This document shows positions 17,630 to 23,236 of a stretch of DNA of 34,147 nt, one piece after another. The stretch's first letter is position 1. Every line of letters starts with the position of its first letter. A program made the position numbers and the translations under genes. The DNA lies in assembly GCA_045547015.1 (NCBI GenBank), contig JAZQDY010000212.1, forward strand, positions 1 through 34,147, in the 5' to 3' direction. A model generated the notes under the pieces. The model saw nothing but the letters and a program-made list of their open reading frames with translations, did not search any database and was not told where the DNA came from. The stretch is from Eubacteriales bacterium (GTDB lineage: Bacteria; Bacillota; Clostridia; Oscillospirales; CAG-272).

Positions 17630-17706
17630 GGAGGCATAGCTCAGCTGGTTAGAGTACTTGCTTGACATGCAAGGGGTCACTGGTTCGATCCCAGTTGTCT
17701 CCACCA
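17630..17706 (+). tRNA. tRNA-Val (anticodon GAC), CCA encoded
   Basis: A hand-folded cloverleaf fits. The acceptor stem is GGAGGCA/TGTCTCC with one G-U pair. The D arm is GCTC..GAGT. The anticodon stem is CTTGC/GCAAG with loop TTGACAT. The T arm is ACTGG-TTCGATC-CCAGT, followed by a discriminator A and CCA. Confidence 0.9.
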
Positions 17707-17713
17707 AAAACGG

Positions 17714-17747
17714 AAAAGAGCCTGTAAATACAGGCTCTTTTGTTTTT
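17714..17747 (+). terminator. intrinsic terminator after the tRNA
   Basis: AAAGAGCCTG pairs with CAGGCTCTTT around loop TAAATA, followed by TGTTTTTG. Confidence 0.7.
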
Positions 17748-17748
17748 G

Positions 17749-17790
17749 TTTACACGATTTTTACACGATTTTGAGGCTTTACACGATTTT
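17749..17790. repeat. three direct copies of TTACACGATTTT at the tRNA/integrase junction
   Basis: The copies start at about 17750, 17761 and 17779. The third contains the integrase stop codon (AAAATCGTGTAA on the minus strand). Confidence 0.7.
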
Positions 17791-18885
17791 ATTCAGTATT
17801 GCAACGGCGCGTTCTTCTTCCCGGGGGTACAAATGGGAGTAGGTATTCCAGGTGATTTCCACTTTACTGTGACCAAGACGGCGGGCCACTTCCTGGATGC
17901 TGATTCCCTCGTTTACGAGGAGAGAGGCATGTGTGTGACGGAAATCGTGTATGCGGATATGAGGGAGTCCGGCAGCGGCGGAGTATGCTTTGTTTTTGTT
18001 TTCGATGCTGGAATCGCGGAGAACAGAGGATCCGCCGCATACGCGGTAATCTTCGGTGAAGCGGCTGTCCTTCTGTTGCCGTTGCTTGTGGGTGTGGAGG
18101 ATCTCCATCAGCGGGAGCGGGATCTGCAGATCGCGGTAGGAACTTTTATTCTTTGGCGGGGTTTCTATATCGCCGCCTTTCAGTTTCTGCGCGATGCTCC
18201 GGCGGACGTGCAGCGTGGTACCTTCGATGTCGCTCCATTTGAGGGCGTTGATCTCCCCTTTGCGCATTCCCGTGTAGAATGCAATGGAGAAGAAGACATA
18301 ATATGGCCAGTCGCCGGATTCCCGGGCGACGGCAGAAAATTCCTTGTACTGCTCGGCGGTGTAGTATTTCAATTTCTCAGCGGGCTTTTCAAAATACACG
18401 TCCTGAAACGTGCCGACAGATTTCAATGGATTGCGGCGGATGCGTTCCAGTTTTACCGCCCAGTTGAGCATGGAATTGAGTTCTTTGTACACATTCCGTT
18501 TTGTTGTGAGTGCCAGCTCCAATTCACCTACATCGTTTTTCCACTTTTGCAGGCGCTGCGGGGTGAGATGCTCCAGACGGACGGATCCGATTCGGGGAAG
18601 AATATGTGTTTCCAGCACATTTCTGGACTTATCCCACGAGGTGGCGCGGACAGACTGCTTCTTTGCGGCCATATAGTCATCATAGAGTTCCCTTACGGTA
18701 ATTCGTTCCGTGGGGGATTTTTCTTTTATATCGGAAAGGAGTTTTGCTTCCAGCTGTTTGGCGGAATCCTTACCGTAGGCGATGCGATCGAGCTGCTTTG
18801 CGTTTCCGCTTGCATCTGTGTAGTTGATACGTACTCGGTACTGCTGCAGACCGTCCTTTTTCCCGGACATTTTGTAGATCGGCAT
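17779..18885 (-). CDS. int: tyrosine-type site-specific integrase (phage integrase family)
   Basis: The arm-binding-like N-terminus reads MPIYKMSGKKDGLQQYRVRINYTD. The catalytic region reads GMRKGEINALKW...HDFRHTHASLLV...LGHSKVEITWNTYSHLY. The start is trimmed to the ATG at 18885, after AAGGAG. Confidence 0.93.
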   Translation of the reverse strand: MPIYKMSGKKDGLQQYRVRINYTDASGNAKQLDRIAYGKDSAKQLEAKLLSDIKEKSPTERITVRELYDDYMAAKKQSVRATSWDKSRNVLETHILPRIGSVRLEHLTPQRLQKWKNDVGELELALTTKRNVYKELNSMLNWAVKLERIRRNPLKSVGTFQDVYFEKPAEKLKYYTAEQYKEFSAVARESGDWPYYVFFSIAFYTGMRKGEINALKWSDIEGTTLHVRRSIAQKLKGGDIETPPKNKSSYRDLQIPLPLMEILHTHKQRQQKDSRFTEDYRVCGGSSVLRDSSIENKNKAYSAAAGLPHIRIHDFRHTHASLLVNEGISIQEVARRLGHSKVEITWNTYSHLYPREEERAVAILNKIV

Positions 18886-19009
18886 GTTGCGGCTCCTTTT
18901 TCGATAATATGTGTGTAGTTTGTCTTTGTAAATAAGGGTTTGTATTATGTATCGTTGTAATAGCGGATTTATATGAGGAAATTTGCTATTAAAAAAGTGA
19001 GTTTTTGTA

Positions 19010-19060
19010 TTGACAAAAGTTGTACGAAGTGATAAAATGTAGTATAACAAATATGTTATA
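19010..19060 (+). promoter_or_regulatory. promoter plus palindromic operator upstream of the toxin-antitoxin-chaperone operon
   Basis: TTGACA (19010-19015), a 17-nt spacer, then TAAAAT (19033-19038). The 18-bp palindrome TATAACA-AATA-TGTTATA (19043-19060) follows immediately. Confidence 0.5.
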
Positions 19061-19097: not shown

Positions 19098-19463
19098 TTG
19101 TACAAGGTTGAGGTATATAAAACAGCGGCAGGAAATGCCCCGGTCAAAGAATACATGCAGGACATTTTGGTAAAACGTCATGGCGTAACTGAACATGCAA
19201 AAGTTAGTTTGTTTATCGAGCGTTTAGAAGAGTACGGGCTGGAGATAAATAAACATTACCCCAGATCCATGAAATATCTTAGGGACGGAGTGTATGAGCT
19301 TCGTCCGGGTGATAACCGCGTATTGTTTTTCTATTGGAGTAGTGAAGGGTACTTCGTCCTGTTGCACTGTTTCAAAAAGAAAAGACAAACGACCCCGCCG
19401 AGAGAAATAGACCAGGCGATAAAAGAGTATAAAGATCATATAAGGAGGAACGGCAATGGCTAA
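19098..19463 (+). CDS. type II toxin, RelE/ParE superfamily, phage Gp49 / HigB-like
   Basis: The sequence MYKVEVYKTAAGNAPVKEYM...YLRDGVYELRPGDNRVLFFYW..GYFVLLHCFKKKRQTTPPREIDQA matches the Gp49-like addiction-module toxin pattern. The start is TTG. It overlaps the next gene by 8 nt. Confidence 0.85.
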   Translation: MYKVEVYKTAAGNAPVKEYMQDILVKRHGVTEHAKVSLFIERLEEYGLEINKHYPRSMKYLRDGVYELRPGDNRVLFFYWSSEGYFVLLHCFKKKRQTTPPREIDQAIKEYKDHIRRNGNG

Positions 19464-19863
19464 GTACACAGTAGATGAAATGTTTAACGAACTGAAAGAA
19501 GATCCACGTTATAGAAAACCAGTTGAGGTTTCTGCAACAGTGTGCCGCATAATTGGGGATATTTCAAAGGCACGGGTAAAGAATAACCTATCTCAAAAGG
19601 AGTTGGCAGAGCTCTGCGGAATGAAGCAGTCTGCTATCGCACGAATTGAAAATATGCACAGCATTCCAAGATTAGATACACTTGCGCGAATTGCTCATGA
19701 AGTAGGAGTAGATATTCATTCATCTGTGTGTGAAACAAAATGTGTAAGAATGCGTATAGGTGCTGTAGAGAAACAGCGTATTGAAACTGCTGCAAAACAG
19801 CAATATCTTTCAAAATCAAAGTATAAATGGCAGCTGGGAGCAGTTTGTGCTATAATCAAATAA
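19456..19863 (+). CDS. XRE-family HTH antitoxin (HigA-like) with a roughly 45-aa C-terminal extension
   Basis: The HTH reads LSQKELAELCGMKQSAIARIENMHSIPRLDTLARIAHEVGVDI. The gene is translationally coupled to the toxin. The tail after the HTH reads SSVCETKCVRMRIGAVEKQRIETAAKQQYLSKSKYKWQLGAVCAIIK. Confidence 0.85.
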   Translation: MAKYTVDEMFNELKEDPRYRKPVEVSATVCRIIGDISKARVKNNLSQKELAELCGMKQSAIARIENMHSIPRLDTLARIAHEVGVDIHSSVCETKCVRMRIGAVEKQRIETAAKQQYLSKSKYKWQLGAVCAIIK

Positions 19864-19943
19864 AGATTGACCATGTTTAATTGGTGCTATTAAATTTTTT
19901 TGGATATAATGTGTCGGTTGATTTAGAAAATTAGGAGTAATAT

Positions 19944-20342
19944 ATGAGTGTTTTTTCAAATATAGAGATAATTACTAATGAAGTTAAAATGACAAACCAT
20001 CAAATGCCTGCTGGGGAATATGAGTTAATACCTACGTTTTCACGCAAGATAGGGAGATTGGCTGGGAATAAATGCTTTACCGAATTGAGTGTTGCGATCA
20101 CCAACACCGAGGAACATCCATTTCCGATTGATCTATATGTACGCATGACCGCTGTATTTTCGATTGATAACATTCCGTCAGAAGATGTTGACAATTTCTT
20201 GGAGATCGATGGAGTGGCTATTCTATACCCATATTTACGATCACTAATTTCATCCGTTGCTGCAAGTGCTTTAATGCCGCCGCTCGTTCTTCCTGTACTT
20301 GACATGGAACTGCTTTTTGAGGATAAAGATTCAGAATCATGA
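19944..20342 (+). CDS. SecB-like chaperone
   Basis: The C-terminal two thirds, DLYVRMTAVFSIDNIPSEDVDNFLEIDGVAILYPYLRSLISSVAASALMPPLVLPVLDMELLF, align by eye to E. coli SecB [63 protein letters not shown]. The RBS is AGGAG. Confidence 0.72.
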   Translation: MSVFSNIEIITNEVKMTNHQMPAGEYELIPTFSRKIGRLAGNKCFTELSVAITNTEEHPFPIDLYVRMTAVFSIDNIPSEDVDNFLEIDGVAILYPYLRSLISSVAASALMPPLVLPVLDMELLFEDKDSES

Positions 20343-20360
20343 CACAATATTAGATTAATG

Positions 20361-20391
20361 CGCCGCCCTTGTAATGGGGCGGCGTTTTTTT
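20361..20391 (+). terminator. intrinsic terminator after the SecB-like gene
   Basis: CGCCGCCC pairs with GGGCGGCG around loop TTGTAATG, followed by TTTTTTT. Confidence 0.75.
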
Positions 20392-20441: not shown

Positions 20442-22238
20442 TTAATTGGAAATCCATTTGTGAGCGCGCCGGAAGCCGAGGGACTCCGCTTCTGCTACGG
20501 TCATGCAGTATCCTTCGCCTTTCTTTTTATCGATAATAACGCGGTCGTACTGCTGATCGAATGGAAGATGATAAATCTTTTCACCGTTCTTGCCAATGTT
20601 ACATTTTATTTTGGGATAAGGTTTTAACGGGAGATCTTCCCGAACGGTTACATGTAATTCGCGGGCAACTGCATTGGCACACTCGGAGAGGGCAGTGGTT
20701 GTTACAAATAAAGGAATAACGGTTTCTTGTGGGTGATCTATTCGATACAGGATAGTGGATCCATAAAGTTGGAATATGTGCTTTTCGTGGATGGTCTTAT
20801 GCTTATCCCAGCGTTTGCACTGTATTACGTAAACCCTGCCGTCTTTTTTTGCAATGATGTCACGTCCCATGTCGTCGTATCCATCCAGAGCACCACGATA
20901 TTCCACGTCAAAGTCGTGGCTTTCATACACCCATCCAACGTATCGTTCGTACATAATACCGGCCTCCCAAGCGGAGCGGGCGCGTGACTCATAGCGATCC
21001 AACGCAAGCTGGTATTTCTCAACGGTGGAGAGATTGGCGTATTCGGTGGCTGAAATCCAATCCTTCAGACTGTCCCATTCGGTGTCGCCCGTTGGCTCTG
21101 CCAGCATTTCTTTGGTGGGCGGGTCAGTGATGAAATCTTCCAGCCAGGGGAAAGTGTGGGTAAGATAGGATAACTGGCTTTCAAGCATCTTTGCCTTGAA
21201 GGTGGCATCTCGCTTCTCTTTGCTGATCCGTTTTAACTCATCCTTTTTTGTGGTTCGCGGAATTGCATCAATGCGCTTATTGTCGATGGTTTTATAATAT
21301 TCCGCTATGCGTTCTGCGAGCCACGGACTGCTTTGAGAGCGGGTGTTTACGATCTTCTGTATATCAGAGCGTTCGCGGTCGATCTCGGATTTGAGCTTGG
21401 TGCATTGGGTGAGCTCGGAACGTAGTGCTTCGTGGTTGGGTAAGAGAAAAATGCCGAGTTCCAGTGCGAGGGTGTACATGTGTTTGCAAGGTTTGCCTTG
21501 GGTGTTGTATTTGAAATCGGGACAGGTACAGGAAGTGAGCGTGGTTTCGTACTCCGTGCCGTCTTTCGCTGAAATGTATTTGGCACGGGTGAGAATGTCA
21601 GAATGATGTATGCCTTCAGCGAAGGCGTGGTGCAAACGAGTGCAGTCTACATCTTTGCTCCAAGTGTATTCTGATTGGTTTTTTGGAAGGAGAGCACGGC
21701 TCAACTGTTTAGTGTTTGACACCCAGTTTTTAAGATTATTGTAATCGACAGATAATGTACGGAAATTTTCTTGTAGTTTTTGCAATTCCTGCTTGAACTC
21801 TTCGCGTTCTCTGTAAAGCGTAACATTGTGTGAAGAAAAATAATCGTTTCGGCTATTCAATCTTTGTTCAAGTTCGCTTTTGTCGGCGATGAGTAATTCT
21901 ATGCGATTAGTTAAACGAAGAATCTCAGCATTTTTTTCATCAAGAAGATACATCTGTTCTTCGATAATTCGTTTATCATCGGGTGAGCAAGGGGCTTGCT
22001 GAATAATGTTGTGGTACTCCTCAGAGTGTGTTTCACTGGCTTTAAGCAACGCATCATGCGATTTCTTTAAGGAGGAATATTCAGATTCAAGTTTACGTAC
22101 CCTTGGGGCGTCTTGCTCAAATTGTTGCAATCTCTTGTAGCCATCGTAACTTCTGGAAATCCAACAAAAAAAGGAAAATAGAAGAATTAAGCCAACAGGA
22201 AGGGAGAGCACGAAAACAATAACCATCCATTCCGGCAC
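20442..22238 (-). CDS. membrane-anchored coiled-coil protein with a SWIM zinc finger, a Mrr-like PD-(D/E)xK nuclease domain and a C-terminal sunset-like motif
   Basis: The protein is 598 aa.
- TM helix, aa 4-27: WMVIVFVLSLPVGLILLFSFFCWI.
- Heptad-rich region, about aa 35-180.
- SWIM CxCx11CxH: SCTCPDFKYNTQGKPCKHMY, aa 236-254.
- Mrr_cat-like core: YERYVGWVYE...DDMGRDIIAKKDGRVYVIQCKRW.
- C-terminus: IKCNIGKNGEKIYHLPFDQQYD...VAEAESLGFRRAHKW.
The GTG start lies 7 nt after the repressor stop. Confidence 0.8.
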   Translation of the reverse strand: MPEWMVIVFVLSLPVGLILLFSFFCWISRSYDGYKRLQQFEQDAPRVRKLESEYSSLKKSHDALLKASETHSEEYHNIIQQAPCSPDDKRIIEEQMYLLDEKNAEILRLTNRIELLIADKSELEQRLNSRNDYFSSHNVTLYREREEFKQELQKLQENFRTLSVDYNNLKNWVSNTKQLSRALLPKNQSEYTWSKDVDCTRLHHAFAEGIHHSDILTRAKYISAKDGTEYETTLTSCTCPDFKYNTQGKPCKHMYTLALELGIFLLPNHEALRSELTQCTKLKSEIDRERSDIQKIVNTRSQSSPWLAERIAEYYKTIDNKRIDAIPRTTKKDELKRISKEKRDATFKAKMLESQLSYLTHTFPWLEDFITDPPTKEMLAEPTGDTEWDSLKDWISATEYANLSTVEKYQLALDRYESRARSAWEAGIMYERYVGWVYESHDFDVEYRGALDGYDDMGRDIIAKKDGRVYVIQCKRWDKHKTIHEKHIFQLYGSTILYRIDHPQETVIPLFVTTTALSECANAVARELHVTVREDLPLKPYPKIKCNIGKNGEKIYHLPFDQQYDRVIIDKKKGEGYCMTVAEAESLGFRRAHKWISN

Positions 22239-22245
22239 AACACTC

Positions 22246-22872
22246 TCACCTTACCTTACTCAAAAATGCAACAGCCAGTCCGATGATCCGGATGTTCTTG
22301 GCGTCCTTGGCCGTGTATATCTGCGGCTTGATCGCCGGGTTCTCGGCCTGCAGGATCATGCTGTCGCCGTCACGGTACACCCGCTTCAGCGTGGCTTCGT
22401 CGTCTACGAGTACCGCCGCGATCTGTCCGTCGTCTACGTCGTCCTGCTGCTTGATATACACCAGATCGCCATCGTAGATCCGGGCACCGATCATGCTGTC
22501 ACCTTTGCAGCGGAGGCAGAAATCGGCGGTGATGTGAGAGGGAACAGTGACGGTCTGCTCCACGTTCTCCGTGGCGAGAATAGGCGTACCGCAGGCGATG
22601 TCGCCCAGCAGCGGAATCTCGTACGTCTCCGGGAGAGGGAGAATGTTTGCGGCGGCGGGGGAGTTCCTTGTGTTTGGGGAAGTTCTGCCGAGAAGAAAAT
22701 CGACGGTAACGCCGAAATGTTCAGAAATGCTTGTCAGAATTTCCATAGAAGGCATAGTTCCGGTTTCATACTTACCAACGGAGGATCGCTCTACGCCAAT
22801 GATTGTAGCGAGTTGTTCTTGCGTTAATTTGTGTCGCTTGCGAAGAGTTTTTAAATTCTCGGCGAGTGTCAT
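22246..22872 (-). CDS. CI/LexA-like phage repressor (XRE HTH plus S24 peptidase domain)
   Basis: The HTH reads MTLAENLKTLRKRHKLTQEQLATIIGVERSSVGKYETG. The S24 domain reads CKGDSMIGARIYDGDLVYIKQQ...GQIAAVLVDDEATLKRV, with the Ser/Lys dyad. The start is trimmed to the ATG at 22872. Confidence 0.9.
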   Translation of the reverse strand: MTLAENLKTLRKRHKLTQEQLATIIGVERSSVGKYETGTMPSMEILTSISEHFGVTVDFLLGRTSPNTRNSPAAANILPLPETYEIPLLGDIACGTPILATENVEQTVTVPSHITADFCLRCKGDSMIGARIYDGDLVYIKQQDDVDDGQIAAVLVDDEATLKRVYRDGDSMILQAENPAIKPQIYTAKDAKNIRIIGLAVAFLSKVR

Positions 22873-22893: not shown

Positions 22894-22995
22894 ATTATAG
22901 TGAATAAAATTCACTAAGTCAACATATTCTGAAAGAAATTCACAAAAACTATTGACAAGACACATGAATAGCAGTATAATGTGAATGTAATTCAG
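22894..22995. promoter_or_regulatory. divergent lysis-lysogeny switch region: two face-to-back promoters and three operator-like 15-mers
   Basis: Rightward promoter: TTGACA (22952-22957), 17 nt, TATAAT (22975-22980). Leftward promoter: TTGACT (rc of 22917-22922), 17 nt, TATAAT (rc of 22894-22899).
Operators:
- O1: GTGAATAAAATTCAC, 22900-22914
- O2: CTGAAAGAAATTCAC, 22929-22943
- O3: GTGAATGTAATTCAG, 22981-22995. Confidence 0.6.
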
Positions 22996-23026
22996 AAAAA
23001 CAAAGCAAAATGTGAAAGGAGAATGT

Positions 23027-23236
23027 ATGAATATCTTTCAATCAATGAGAAAAGAAGCCGGGATCAGTCAGGCAATGCTTGCAGACAGAGTTGGTGTTGA
23101 GAGATCAACTGTAGCAAAATGGGAGACAGGAACAAGCCTGCCCCGGGCAGATCTTCTGCCGAAGCTGGCGGACGTGCTGGGCTGCACGGTGGACGAATTG
23201 CTCCGTCAGCCGGAACAAAAAGAAACTCCCGCCTGA
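23027..23236 (+). CDS. Cro-like XRE-family HTH regulator
   Basis: MNIFQSMRKEAGISQAMLADRVGVERSTVAKWETGTSLPRADLLPKLADVLGCTVDELL. The RBS AAAGGAG lies upstream of the ATG at 23027. The gene is divergent from the repressor. Confidence 0.85.
   Translation: MNIFQSMRKEAGISQAMLADRVGVERSTVAKWETGTSLPRADLLPKLADVLGCTVDELLRQPEQKETPA

Follow-up and report, generated by a model that had tools for sequence, protein, structure and literature searches.

What does a gene do that lies directly behind the repressor of a prophage and encodes a nuclease with a membrane anchor? This question is raised by a stretch of 34,147 nucleotides (nt) from a Eubacteriales bacterium (Clostridia; Oscillospirales; CAG-272), namely positions 1 to 34,147 of contig JAZQDY010000212.1 in assembly GCA_045547015.1, which in the following is referred to as the window. 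The gene in question, for which gene T is used as a working name (protein: T), is a 598-amino-acid (aa) open reading frame (ORF) at 20442-22238. The original prediction described it as a candidate defence or exclusion gene of a prophage, and this candidate status is supported, as each of the proposed computational checks that were run came out in its favour. We regard a role of T in defence or exclusion, of whatever kind, as probable. The fuller proposal that T is a single-gene cargo nuclease, expressed in the lysogen, tethered to the membrane and cutting entering DNA in the manner of SNIPE, has as a combined statement about an even chance of being correct; that T specifically cuts DNA at entry is put forward tentatively, with rather less than even confidence.

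Architecture and predicted fold of the T protein

From the letters of the DNA, a transmembrane helix, long helices, a SWIM finger, a helical domain, an Mrr_cat core and a sunset-like end had been proposed, in this order. The domain order was borne out by our analysis (residue numbers are those of T):

20442..22238, minus strand: gene T, a membrane-anchored SWIM, Mrr_cat and sunset protein (598-aa ORF, GTG start)
22158..22226, minus strand: N-terminal membrane anchor, about residues 5-27 (hydrophobicity and charge)
21690..22154, minus strand: long helical, heptad-rich stalk, residues 29-183 (AlphaFold2 helices 2-81 and 86-183)
21453..21593, minus strand: SWIM zinc finger, residues 216-262 (Pfam SWIM, residues 235-261)
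20919..21338, minus strand: family-specific helical domain, residues 301-440 (occupancy 1.00; predicted local distance difference test score, pLDDT, mostly 84-98)
20634..20918, minus strand: Mrr_cat PD-(D/E)xK nuclease core, residues 441-535 (Pfam, motif and fold)
20454..20621, minus strand: sunset-like C-terminal domain, residues 540-595 (NCBIfam NF051437)

The PD-(D/E)xK nuclease postulated for the C-terminal part was recovered by profile, motif and predicted fold. Pfam Mrr_cat (PF04471) matches residues 430-528 with E=3.8e-8 and 33.9 bits against a cut-off of 21, and Mrr_cat_2 matches T as well (E=8.6e-6). The motif residues are D460 in GRDIIA and Q473-C-K475 in VIQCKRW. In an alignment of 70 homologous sequences E439, D460, C474 and K475 are invariant and Q473 is conserved in at least 90%, which makes E439, D460, Q473 and K475 the candidate catalytic residues. 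With profile, motif and modelled fold in agreement, the catalytic domain belongs to the Mrr_cat family. The nuclease is evidently real, under selection and, as judged from these residues, probably active. An inactive nuclease was considered and rejected, since matches to NA-iREase1 were weak (4 of the 70 members) and the catalytic residues do not vary.

To describe the overall fold, an AlphaFold2 model of the full T protein was built on the 70 homologues (mean pLDDT 84.2). It places the helices 2-81 and 86-183 in the N-terminal region, a stalk of about 155 aa where heptad-rich sequence had been noted. These are followed by a disordered linker (179-214), a beta/alpha SWIM unit (218-260), a helical domain (269-440), an alpha/beta nuclease (444-533) and a small beta-rich C-terminal domain (544-590). 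The nuclease residues 441-535 are modelled with pLDDT values of 88-98. Foldseek searches against the PDB returned AF1548 (1y88; E=3.3e-5), MspJI (5e-4) and EndoMS/NucS (1.5e-3) for this part, together with AspBHI, Hjc, Hna and Cdn1/Card1/Can2, as well as McrC and Avs3 in their nuclease parts; MspJI, AspBHI, Hna, Cdn1 and Card1 among them are defence enzymes. A second model of residues 264-598 (pLDDT 87.1, predicted template modelling score 0.65) gave the same list of matches. Again these covered only the nuclease, so that neither the helical domain nor the sunset domain has a PDB relative in this search, and the helical domain resembled no known family or fold. Searching the PDB by sequence, with T or with the profile of the 70 sequences, returned coiled-coil noise alone (Rad50, SMC, ATP synthase b).

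The SWIM finger was confirmed by a profile match above the cut-off (PF04434, residues 235-261, E=1.9e-6, 27.7 bits against 19.6). Its signature C237-x-C239-x11-C251-x-H253 stands where it had been predicted, and all four residues are conserved in at least 90% of the 70 sequences. The sunset-like motif stood in part. NF051437 matches residues 544-592 of T over profile positions 1-41 of 42, with E=8.4e-4 and 19.3 bits, and T itself thus remains below the curated cut-off of 27; on the other hand, 66 of the 70 homologues match at E<=0.01 (best 2.6e-6), and C546, N547, H557, P559 and Y564 are invariant in the alignment. Mrr_N or any other modification-reading domain was absent both from the Pfam matches of T (E<=1) and from the 25 families that the 70 homologues matched most frequently.

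With respect to the membrane anchor, residues 6-24 form the best 19-residue window (mean Kyte-Doolittle value 2.76), with no lysine or arginine before the segment and four within the next 15 residues. Such an anchor is present in 185 of 224 non-redundant homologues (median start at residue 6). In 161 of the 185, positive residues are more numerous after it than before it (mean 3.28 versus 0.48), in accordance with the positive-inside rule and with the cytoplasmic orientation suggested at the outset. Because of this charge bias we predict an N-out/C-in membrane anchor rather than a signal peptide, a topology that also fits a cytoplasmic zinc finger. A secreted nuclease was rejected: a positive n-region is lacking, the distribution of charges places the C-terminus inside, and a finger of cysteines and histidines fits the cytoplasm. 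The anchor is kept, without conservation of its sequence, in Patescibacteria, Chloroflexota, Planctomycetota, Nostoc and archaea.

In the short forms of the family (about 375-450 aa, from at least eight phyla) we observed a motif, K-Y-x-x-L-K-P-(R/K)-L-D-x-(L/I)-(D/E), directly after the membrane helix. It occurs among others in Nostoc, Patescibacteria, Planctomycetota and the archaeon Geoglobus (loci L034, L037, L042, L046-L048, L052, L056, L061, L063, L066, L070, L073, L080, L081 and L087) and is absent from the Clostridia prophage forms.

Regarding the family as a whole, Mrr_cat was found in 70 and SWIM in 62 of the 70 aligned homologues, the SWIM finger being confined to the long Clostridia forms and missing from the short ones. 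The conserved unit consists of the last 305 or so residues, i.e. helical domain, nuclease and sunset (interquartile range 303-307 aa), and is preceded by an N-terminal region of 4-456 aa (median 238). The fraction of sequences carrying the majority residue follows the same division: 0.22 in the anchor, 0.14 in the stalk and 0.54 in the SWIM finger, then 0.58 in the helical domain, 0.64 in the nuclease and 0.75 in the sunset domain, the most conserved part. A few of the N-termini weakly resemble DivIC, FtsL, MreC or FlbB.

A word-indexed search detected 1,529 relatives among the candidates that it scored, the nearest being 46-55% identical, and a profile search of 1.84 billion representatives returned 1,167 clusters (50% identity) at E<=1e-30. 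The ten homologues that were looked up are named 'hypothetical protein' or not at all. Searches of the literature that joined SWIM and Mrr with transmembrane, prophage and anti-phage terms gave no description of the family, and one for 'sunset domain' returned nothing relevant. PADLOC-DB v2.0.0 (2023; 5,027 models), which had been proposed as a check, contains no family that matches T at E<=1. The family has no name, no solved structure and no PADLOC match.

Probable transcription with the repressor and position in prophages

The second line of evidence is the position of gene T, for which the following features are needed:

22239..22262, minus strand: junction of repressor and gene T, with the Shine-Dalgarno-like (SD-like) stretch AAGGTAAGGTGA ending in the repressor TGA, then a 7-nt spacer (sequence read)
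22246..22872, minus strand: CI/LexA-like repressor, HTH_3 plus Peptidase_S24 (Pfam Peptidase_S24 1.8e-28, HTH_3 2e-14)
22894..22922, minus strand: leftward promoter-like site TTGACT-17-TATAAT (agrees with the consensus at 11 of 12 positions; lies within the long repressor ORF)
22900-22914, 22929-22943 and 22981-22995, no strand: three operator-like GTGAAT-N3-ATTCAC copies (direct-repeat family plus inverted repeats)
23012..23236, plus strand: Cro-like helix-turn-helix (HTH) gene, divergent from the repressor (Pfam HTH_3 1.6e-16)
20360..20385, no strand: G+C-rich hairpin in the interval where the T and SecB-like genes converge (10-pair stem, 8 G-C; T-run on the plus strand)

Read directly, the minus strand at the junction is AGTAAGGTAAGGTGAgagtgttGTGccggaatgg. 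After the repressor TGA (22248-22246) come a spacer of 7 nt and the GTG of gene T on the same strand, and a GGTGA SD-like stretch ends within this stop codon, just as the first reading had it. The Pfam matches likewise agree that the upstream gene encodes a CI/LexA-like repressor. The repressor probably starts at ATG 22872 (MTLAENL...) and not at the listed 22965, because the leftward promoter lies inside the longer ORF and is followed by AAAGGGGTGAcattATG at 22872, where a strong Shine-Dalgarno sequence, AAAGGGGTGA, precedes the ATG. A rightward promoter match at 22952-22980 agrees in 12 of 12 positions, and the operator-like copies overlap both divergent promoters. The region between the repressor and the Cro-like gene is, in its predicted layout, a lambda-like switch with three operators.

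The leftward site at 22922-22894 is the likely promoter of a transcript of repressor and T. No promoter-like site was found between the repressor start at 22872 and the GTG of gene T, and about 57 nt past the stop of gene T on the minus strand follows the hairpin, a candidate bidirectional terminator. Because of this upstream promoter, the absence of another one in between and the hairpin behind, gene T is likely co-transcribed with the repressor and would hence be made in the lysogen.

To see whether this position recurs, we compared loci from 80 species-representative genomes, split into Clostridia and other phyla by record titles, and 80 loci kept from 130 IMG/VR viral contigs carrying the family. 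HTH, S24, M78 and recombinase labels were assigned by jackhmmer from a few seed proteins and cross-checked in bulk by Pfam censuses. By approximate count, an HTH/S24 immunity regulator lies immediately upstream of T in 25 of 39 Clostridia genome loci (and one gene further in 3 more), and an HTH/S24/M78 immunity gene in 51 of 77 IMG/VR loci; in the Clostridia genomes and the viral contigs homologues thus sit repeatedly next to prophage repressors, as the defence hypothesis had anticipated. A tyrosine integrase was found in 20 of 40 Clostridia loci and serine recombinases in at least 5; among the viral contigs a recombinase follows within four genes in 29 of 80, many of these loci being cut by contig ends. 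The gap to the upstream gene ranges from 1 to 100 nt in the called genes, and the position is the same with three types of immunity and with recombinases of two families. The arrangements seen include HTH gene, T, Gp49/HTH pair and integrase; S24 repressor, T and serine recombinase; and a 119-aa gene, an M78 (ImmA-like) protease and T overlapping the integrase gene. One 431-aa variant recurs in identical form, with 955 blocks of the sequence collection indexed for it. In eight places it is preceded by a 124-aa HTH gene (22-nt gap) and followed by a small HTH gene and the integrase, with a Cro-like gene opposite, and in 3 of the 8 an Abi_2 gene is inserted before the integrase.

The content of the interval between repressor and integrase varies. 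Prophages that are otherwise near-identical (loci L003, L006 and L007; 7863-8987) are distinguished by an inserted Abi_2 gene together with a duplicated HTH gene of 72 aa, situated between T and the integrase, which is direct evidence that the interval gains and loses cargo of the defence type. T was absent from all 27 viral contigs that encode relatives of the window repressor (30-53% identity); there the integrase comes directly after the repressor, or else unrelated genes of 108-386 aa do. Because relatives of the window repressor carry other genes or nothing in this place, the interval is a variable cargo position and T is one of many alternative occupants, others being Abi_2, Gp49/HTH toxin-antitoxin pairs and the toxin-antitoxin-chaperone (TAC)-like module of the window. 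Gene T thus has the position of a moron or exclusion gene, as it lies in a lysogeny module whose content differs between related prophages. A methyltransferase or other recurrent partner near T was found in none of the locus sets.

At the level of base composition, gene T is AT-richer than the repressor, as had been noticed by eye: the G+C content (GC) is 0.451 against 0.542, and 0.526 in the rest of the prophage. The drop resides mainly in the N-terminal third (0.398, remainder 0.481). The first 215 codons, i.e. anchor and stalk (21594-22238), have a GC of 0.398 and a third-position GC (GC3) of 0.391, compared to 0.481 and 0.542 in the remainder of the gene (20442-21593). This step within the gene suggests that the N-terminal module was swapped in from another source than the nuclease core.

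Concerning distribution, a scan with three peptide patterns detected the family in at least 430 stretches of the 185,579 species-representative genomes that were scanned; the occurrence is patchy and crosses phyla. It is further carried on plasmids and on the 130 viral contigs, and solitary relatives are found in more than 10 phyla, including Patescibacteria and archaea. In BFVD the matches were uncharacterised 'restriction endonuclease' proteins from Siphoviridae of the gut. Among 50,697 phage records, megablast of the lysogeny region gave no match and tblastn of T one marginal match covering 24% of the query, so that no cultured phage in this set carries the family. PHROGs gave nothing significant for T, and no superinfection-exclusion PHROG was matched.

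Outside the Clostridia prophages, what remains is the 305-aa core with the anchor, encoded by a gene that occurs sporadically and alone in Chloroflexota, Planctomycetota, Patescibacteria, Nostoc, Verrucomicrobiota, Acidobacteriota, Pseudomonadota and two archaea. An integrase was found in 3 of these 38 loci. The 126 genes that flank them are a mixed set, in which matches to defence models comprise 3 SoFic, 2 BrxHI/DpdF-like, 2 SngC and 2 PsyrT. No conserved synteny was detected outside prophages, not even among five Patescibacteria loci. Four Hymenobacter plasmids carry a 398-aa form between metal-resistance cassettes, annotated as 'restriction endonuclease' by the Prokaryotic Genome Annotation Pipeline (PGAP), with DUF4238, FRG and DUF4942 genes as neighbours.

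In the two of these plasmids that were examined (L175 and L176; 6591-10079), a 415-aa conserved hypothetical protein is encoded about 50 nt upstream on the same strand, and a convergent DUF4238 gene follows. This common three-gene block, which has copper- and arsenic-resistance cassettes on its two sides, may be a local partner arrangement or a defence islet.

Proposed action, known systems and rival explanations

How could such a protein act? In the mechanism that we propose, T would be a cargo gene (moron) of the lysogeny module, transcribed with the repressor from the leftward promoter. The protein would span the inner membrane once, with an N-terminus of 4-5 residues outside and the rest in the cytoplasm, where the variable helical stalk probably dimerises. 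The nuclease is solitary and lacks a partner methyltransferase; its anchor would keep it at a distance from the nucleoid and the host chromosome. DNA entering through the membrane, be it the genome of a superinfecting phage or possibly other DNA, would be cut close to its entry, with the SWIM, helical and sunset modules binding DNA or a component of the injection machinery. The lysogen, and the prophage with it, would thereby be protected. A tethered defence or exclusion nuclease seems to us the simplest explanation because it accounts for a solitary endonuclease, a kept anchor, a variable stalk, a conserved core that includes two small putative binding modules, and an operon predicted to be on in the lysogen.

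Several known systems share parts of this picture. In the lactococcal P335 phages and in TP-J34, respectively, Sie2009 and Ltp are encoded between repressor and integrase, are membrane-associated, are expressed in the lysogen and act on DNA entry. Position and membrane location are therefore shared with T, whereas Sie2009 and Ltp are small proteins or lipoproteins without an enzymatic domain and T has a nuclease. In lambda, rexAB is located downstream of cI, with which it is co-transcribed in the lysogen, and one of its components is a membrane protein. Here too the position and a membrane protein correspond, yet rexAB is a two-protein abortive system around an ion channel, and T is a single protein with a nuclease and without homology to it. 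The catalytic domain of T is homologous to that of the Type IV enzymes Mrr, MspJI and AspBHI in its D...QxK form, the QxK variant of the PD-(D/E)xK motif being common to Mrr and MspJI, and these enzymes are likewise solitary, without a methyltransferase. In contrast, they have no anchor, stalk, SWIM or sunset domain, and T has no Mrr_N, SRA or other modification reader; an assignment of T to Mrr proper was rejected for want of a reader domain. Type I Zorya includes an Mrr-like nuclease in ZorD. Zorya and Kiwa are membrane-positioned defences that act on entering phage DNA (PMC13190303); unlike T, both consist of several genes and have MotAB-like or multi-pass membrane sensors, and T has no PADLOC match to either.

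The closest functional analogue is SNIPE, through which a membrane-tethered nuclease acting on incoming DNA now has a published counterpart (PMC13190303). SNIPE consists of an N-terminal anchor with the periplasm on its N-side, a middle domain that binds DNA and the tape-measure protein, and a C-terminal nuclease; it cleaves phage DNA during injection and acts directly, not abortively. Without its anchor SNIPE is toxic, an effect that a catalytic mutation relieves, and in its homologues the nuclease is conserved and their N-terminal part hypervariable in sequence and length (PMC13190303). T resembles it in being a single protein with a short outside N-terminus, one membrane helix, an elongated cytoplasmic part and a C-terminal nuclease, with a middle domain that may bind DNA or phage proteins and no methyltransferase partner; the N-out single-pass anchor is in the case of T a prediction from hydrophobicity and the positive-inside rule. 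The evolutionary pattern is also common to both, as majority-residue fractions in the T family are 0.14-0.22 for the N-terminal region against 0.58-0.75 for the core, and the N-terminal regions sometimes resemble proteins of the FtsB/FtsL type. The domains differ: SNIPE has DUF4041 and GIY-YIG, and T has SWIM, a novel helical domain, Mrr_cat and sunset. DUF4041, GIY-YIG or T5orf172 were not detected in T (Pfam, E<=1), nor were DUF4041 or GIY-YIG among the 25 families most often matched by its homologues, and homology with SNIPE was therefore rejected. Because layout and evolutionary pattern are common and the domains are not, we read T as convergent with SNIPE. A further difference is that SNIPE was studied in E. 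coli with demonstrated activity, whereas T occurs mainly in Clostridia prophage lysogeny modules and its activity is deduced. As a whole, T is not a member of Mrr proper, of SNIPE or of any PADLOC v2 system.

Several points weigh against the tethered, entry-cutting reading. The family and the locus are known from sequence alone, and the reading is built on them by inference; neither sequence nor profile links T to a validated defence system in PADLOC v2. The stalk of about 155 aa could reach up to about 20 nm from the membrane, so that cutting at the point of entry is not a given. Within the repressor coding sequence, at 22715-22700, there is a weak terminator-like site (6 pairs, 4 G-C). Gene calls in the fetched loci were greedy longest ORFs, a crude method that makes the neighbourhood counts approximate. 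In the other phyla an HTH/S24 immunity regulator lies immediately upstream of T in 0 of 31 loci, most of the neighbours there are ordinary metabolic or informational genes (tRNA synthetase, DNA polymerase III alpha), and the association with defence islands outside Clostridia is only suggestive.

The main rival is abortive infection. Here T would be held inactive at the membrane and be activated or released on infection, for instance by a perturbation of the membrane or by a phage protein sensed via the SWIM or helical domains; it would then degrade host and phage DNA and kill the cell before phage release. Anatomy and context fit this as well as they fit direct cutting, the adjoining cargo is of the Abi or toxin-antitoxin type (Abi_2, the TAC-like module), and Card1, Can2 and Cdn1, which are structural neighbours of the nuclease, are signal-activated abortive effectors. 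We nevertheless consider it unlikely, given that the sequence does not indicate a release or activation switch, that a near-universal anchor is more simply understood as permanent sequestration, and that SNIPE, the sole characterised protein of such a layout, acts directly. Mrr_cat as catalytic domain also brings to mind a Type IV-like restriction enzyme that reads modified phage DNA via its accessory domains, the anchor being secondary. MspJI and AspBHI, the best multi-domain structural matches, are modification-dependent, a partner methyltransferase is lacking, and PGAP calls the Hymenobacter homologues restriction endonucleases; yet no Mrr_N, SRA-like or other known reader was recognised and the retention of the anchor in 185 of 224 homologues would be left unexplained, which makes this explanation improbable. 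It is moreover compatible with either direct or abortive action and not exclusive of them. A classical restriction-modification system was rejected outright, as no methyltransferase lies nearby in any locus set.

Three further explanations were weighed, the least improbable of which, itself very improbable, is that T serves the life cycle of the prophage, be it as an induction sensor or anti-repressor partner, as a helper of excision or replication, or as a degrader of host DNA after induction. T is indeed embedded in a repressor-(ImmA)-integrase operon and many of its partner repressors are HTH-only, without a self-cleavage domain. It is however present with all three immunity designs, including a self-cleaving S24 repressor as in the window; closely related repressors do without it, core and anchor occur in the 38 loci of other phyla with neither repressor nor integrase nearby, and a membrane anchor would be odd for the regulator of a DNA-bound repressor. 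An addiction toxin held in check by the co-transcribed repressor, so that loss of the prophage kills the cell, would agree with the HTH gene immediately upstream, the usual layout of Xre-type antitoxin and toxin. This gene is clearly a phage immunity repressor (divergent Cro-like gene, three operators, S24), an M78 protease takes its place in some elements, and homologues in other phyla have no such partner; we therefore give addiction hardly any weight. The same scant probability is assigned to a housekeeping protein captured by phages, such as a membrane-associated nuclease of DNA repair, segregation or uptake, which the mostly housekeeping neighbours outside Clostridia and the presence in small-genome Patescibacteria would favour. 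Such a role, or one as a phage-replication factor, had been named beforehand as an outcome that would speak against defence, and it is argued against because the gene is rare (at least 430 stretches in the 185,579 representatives) and non-syntenic outside prophages, the five Patescibacteria loci included; carriage on plasmids and 130 viral contigs argues in the same direction.

Returning to the tethered nuclease, it is a possible, though by no means secured, extension that T represents a second, independently evolved family of entry-point nucleases, which tells self from foreign DNA by location, is convergent with SNIPE and ranks among the commonest lysogeny-module cargo of Clostridia prophages in the human gut. 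If true, location-based discrimination of self and non-self would not be unique to SNIPE, and at least two unrelated nuclease folds would have come to serve it. A function would also be given to a family of about 1,200 clusters now called 'restriction endonuclease' or 'hypothetical protein', and T would be a major determinant of competition between phages in gut Oscillospiraceae and Faecalibacterium-type lysogens. To our knowledge almost no prophage-encoded defences have been characterised in these lysogens, which are hard to study experimentally. The concept itself already has its precedent in SNIPE; what T adds is a large, unnamed family that is abundant in the human gut.

Prophage surroundings in the window

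From left to right the window contains a host EamA transporter gene, tRNA-Val, the integrase, a Gp49/HTH/SecB module, T, the repressor, the Cro-like gene and early genes, the last including SSB and replication initiators. The features to the left of gene T are:

17630..19050, no strand: left end of the prophage, tRNA-Val plus tyrosine integrase (ARAGORN; Pfam)
17630-17706, plus strand: tRNA-Val, anticodon GAC (ARAGORN)
17779-19050, minus strand: tyrosine integrase (Pfam Phage_integrase 2.8e-20)
19098..20342, plus strand: second cargo, a TAC-like module between integrase and repressor (Pfam matches)
19098-19463, plus strand: Gp49/HigB-like toxin gene (Pfam Gp49 3.5e-14)
19456-19863, plus strand: HTH antitoxin gene with C-terminal extension, overlapping the toxin gene (Pfam HTH_3 7.6e-15)
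19944-20342, plus strand: SecB-like chaperone gene, convergent with T (Pfam SecB 5.2e-12)

The tRNA-Val lies 72 nt from the stop-codon end of the integrase gene and is probably the attachment site of the prophage. The window stops at the contig end and is free of structural phage genes; the right end of the prophage is beyond the contig.

The TAC-like module is the AT-richest stretch of the prophage (GC 0.39-0.42). At the equivalent position, loci L009 and L090 have Gp49/HTH pairs without a chaperone. TAC systems have been reported as antiphage (bioRxiv 10.1101/2024.02.24.581848; PMC5105189).

Two other arrangements were observed around T homologues. In nine loci (L017, L106, L107, L114, L118, L119, L121, L124 and L126) T and a giant ORF of about 1,950-1,980 aa are convergent, and no integrase follows. 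In L092 and L094, a polyvalent protein of more than 3,300 aa (LPD3/LPD23/MuF_C) is encoded just beyond the integrase.

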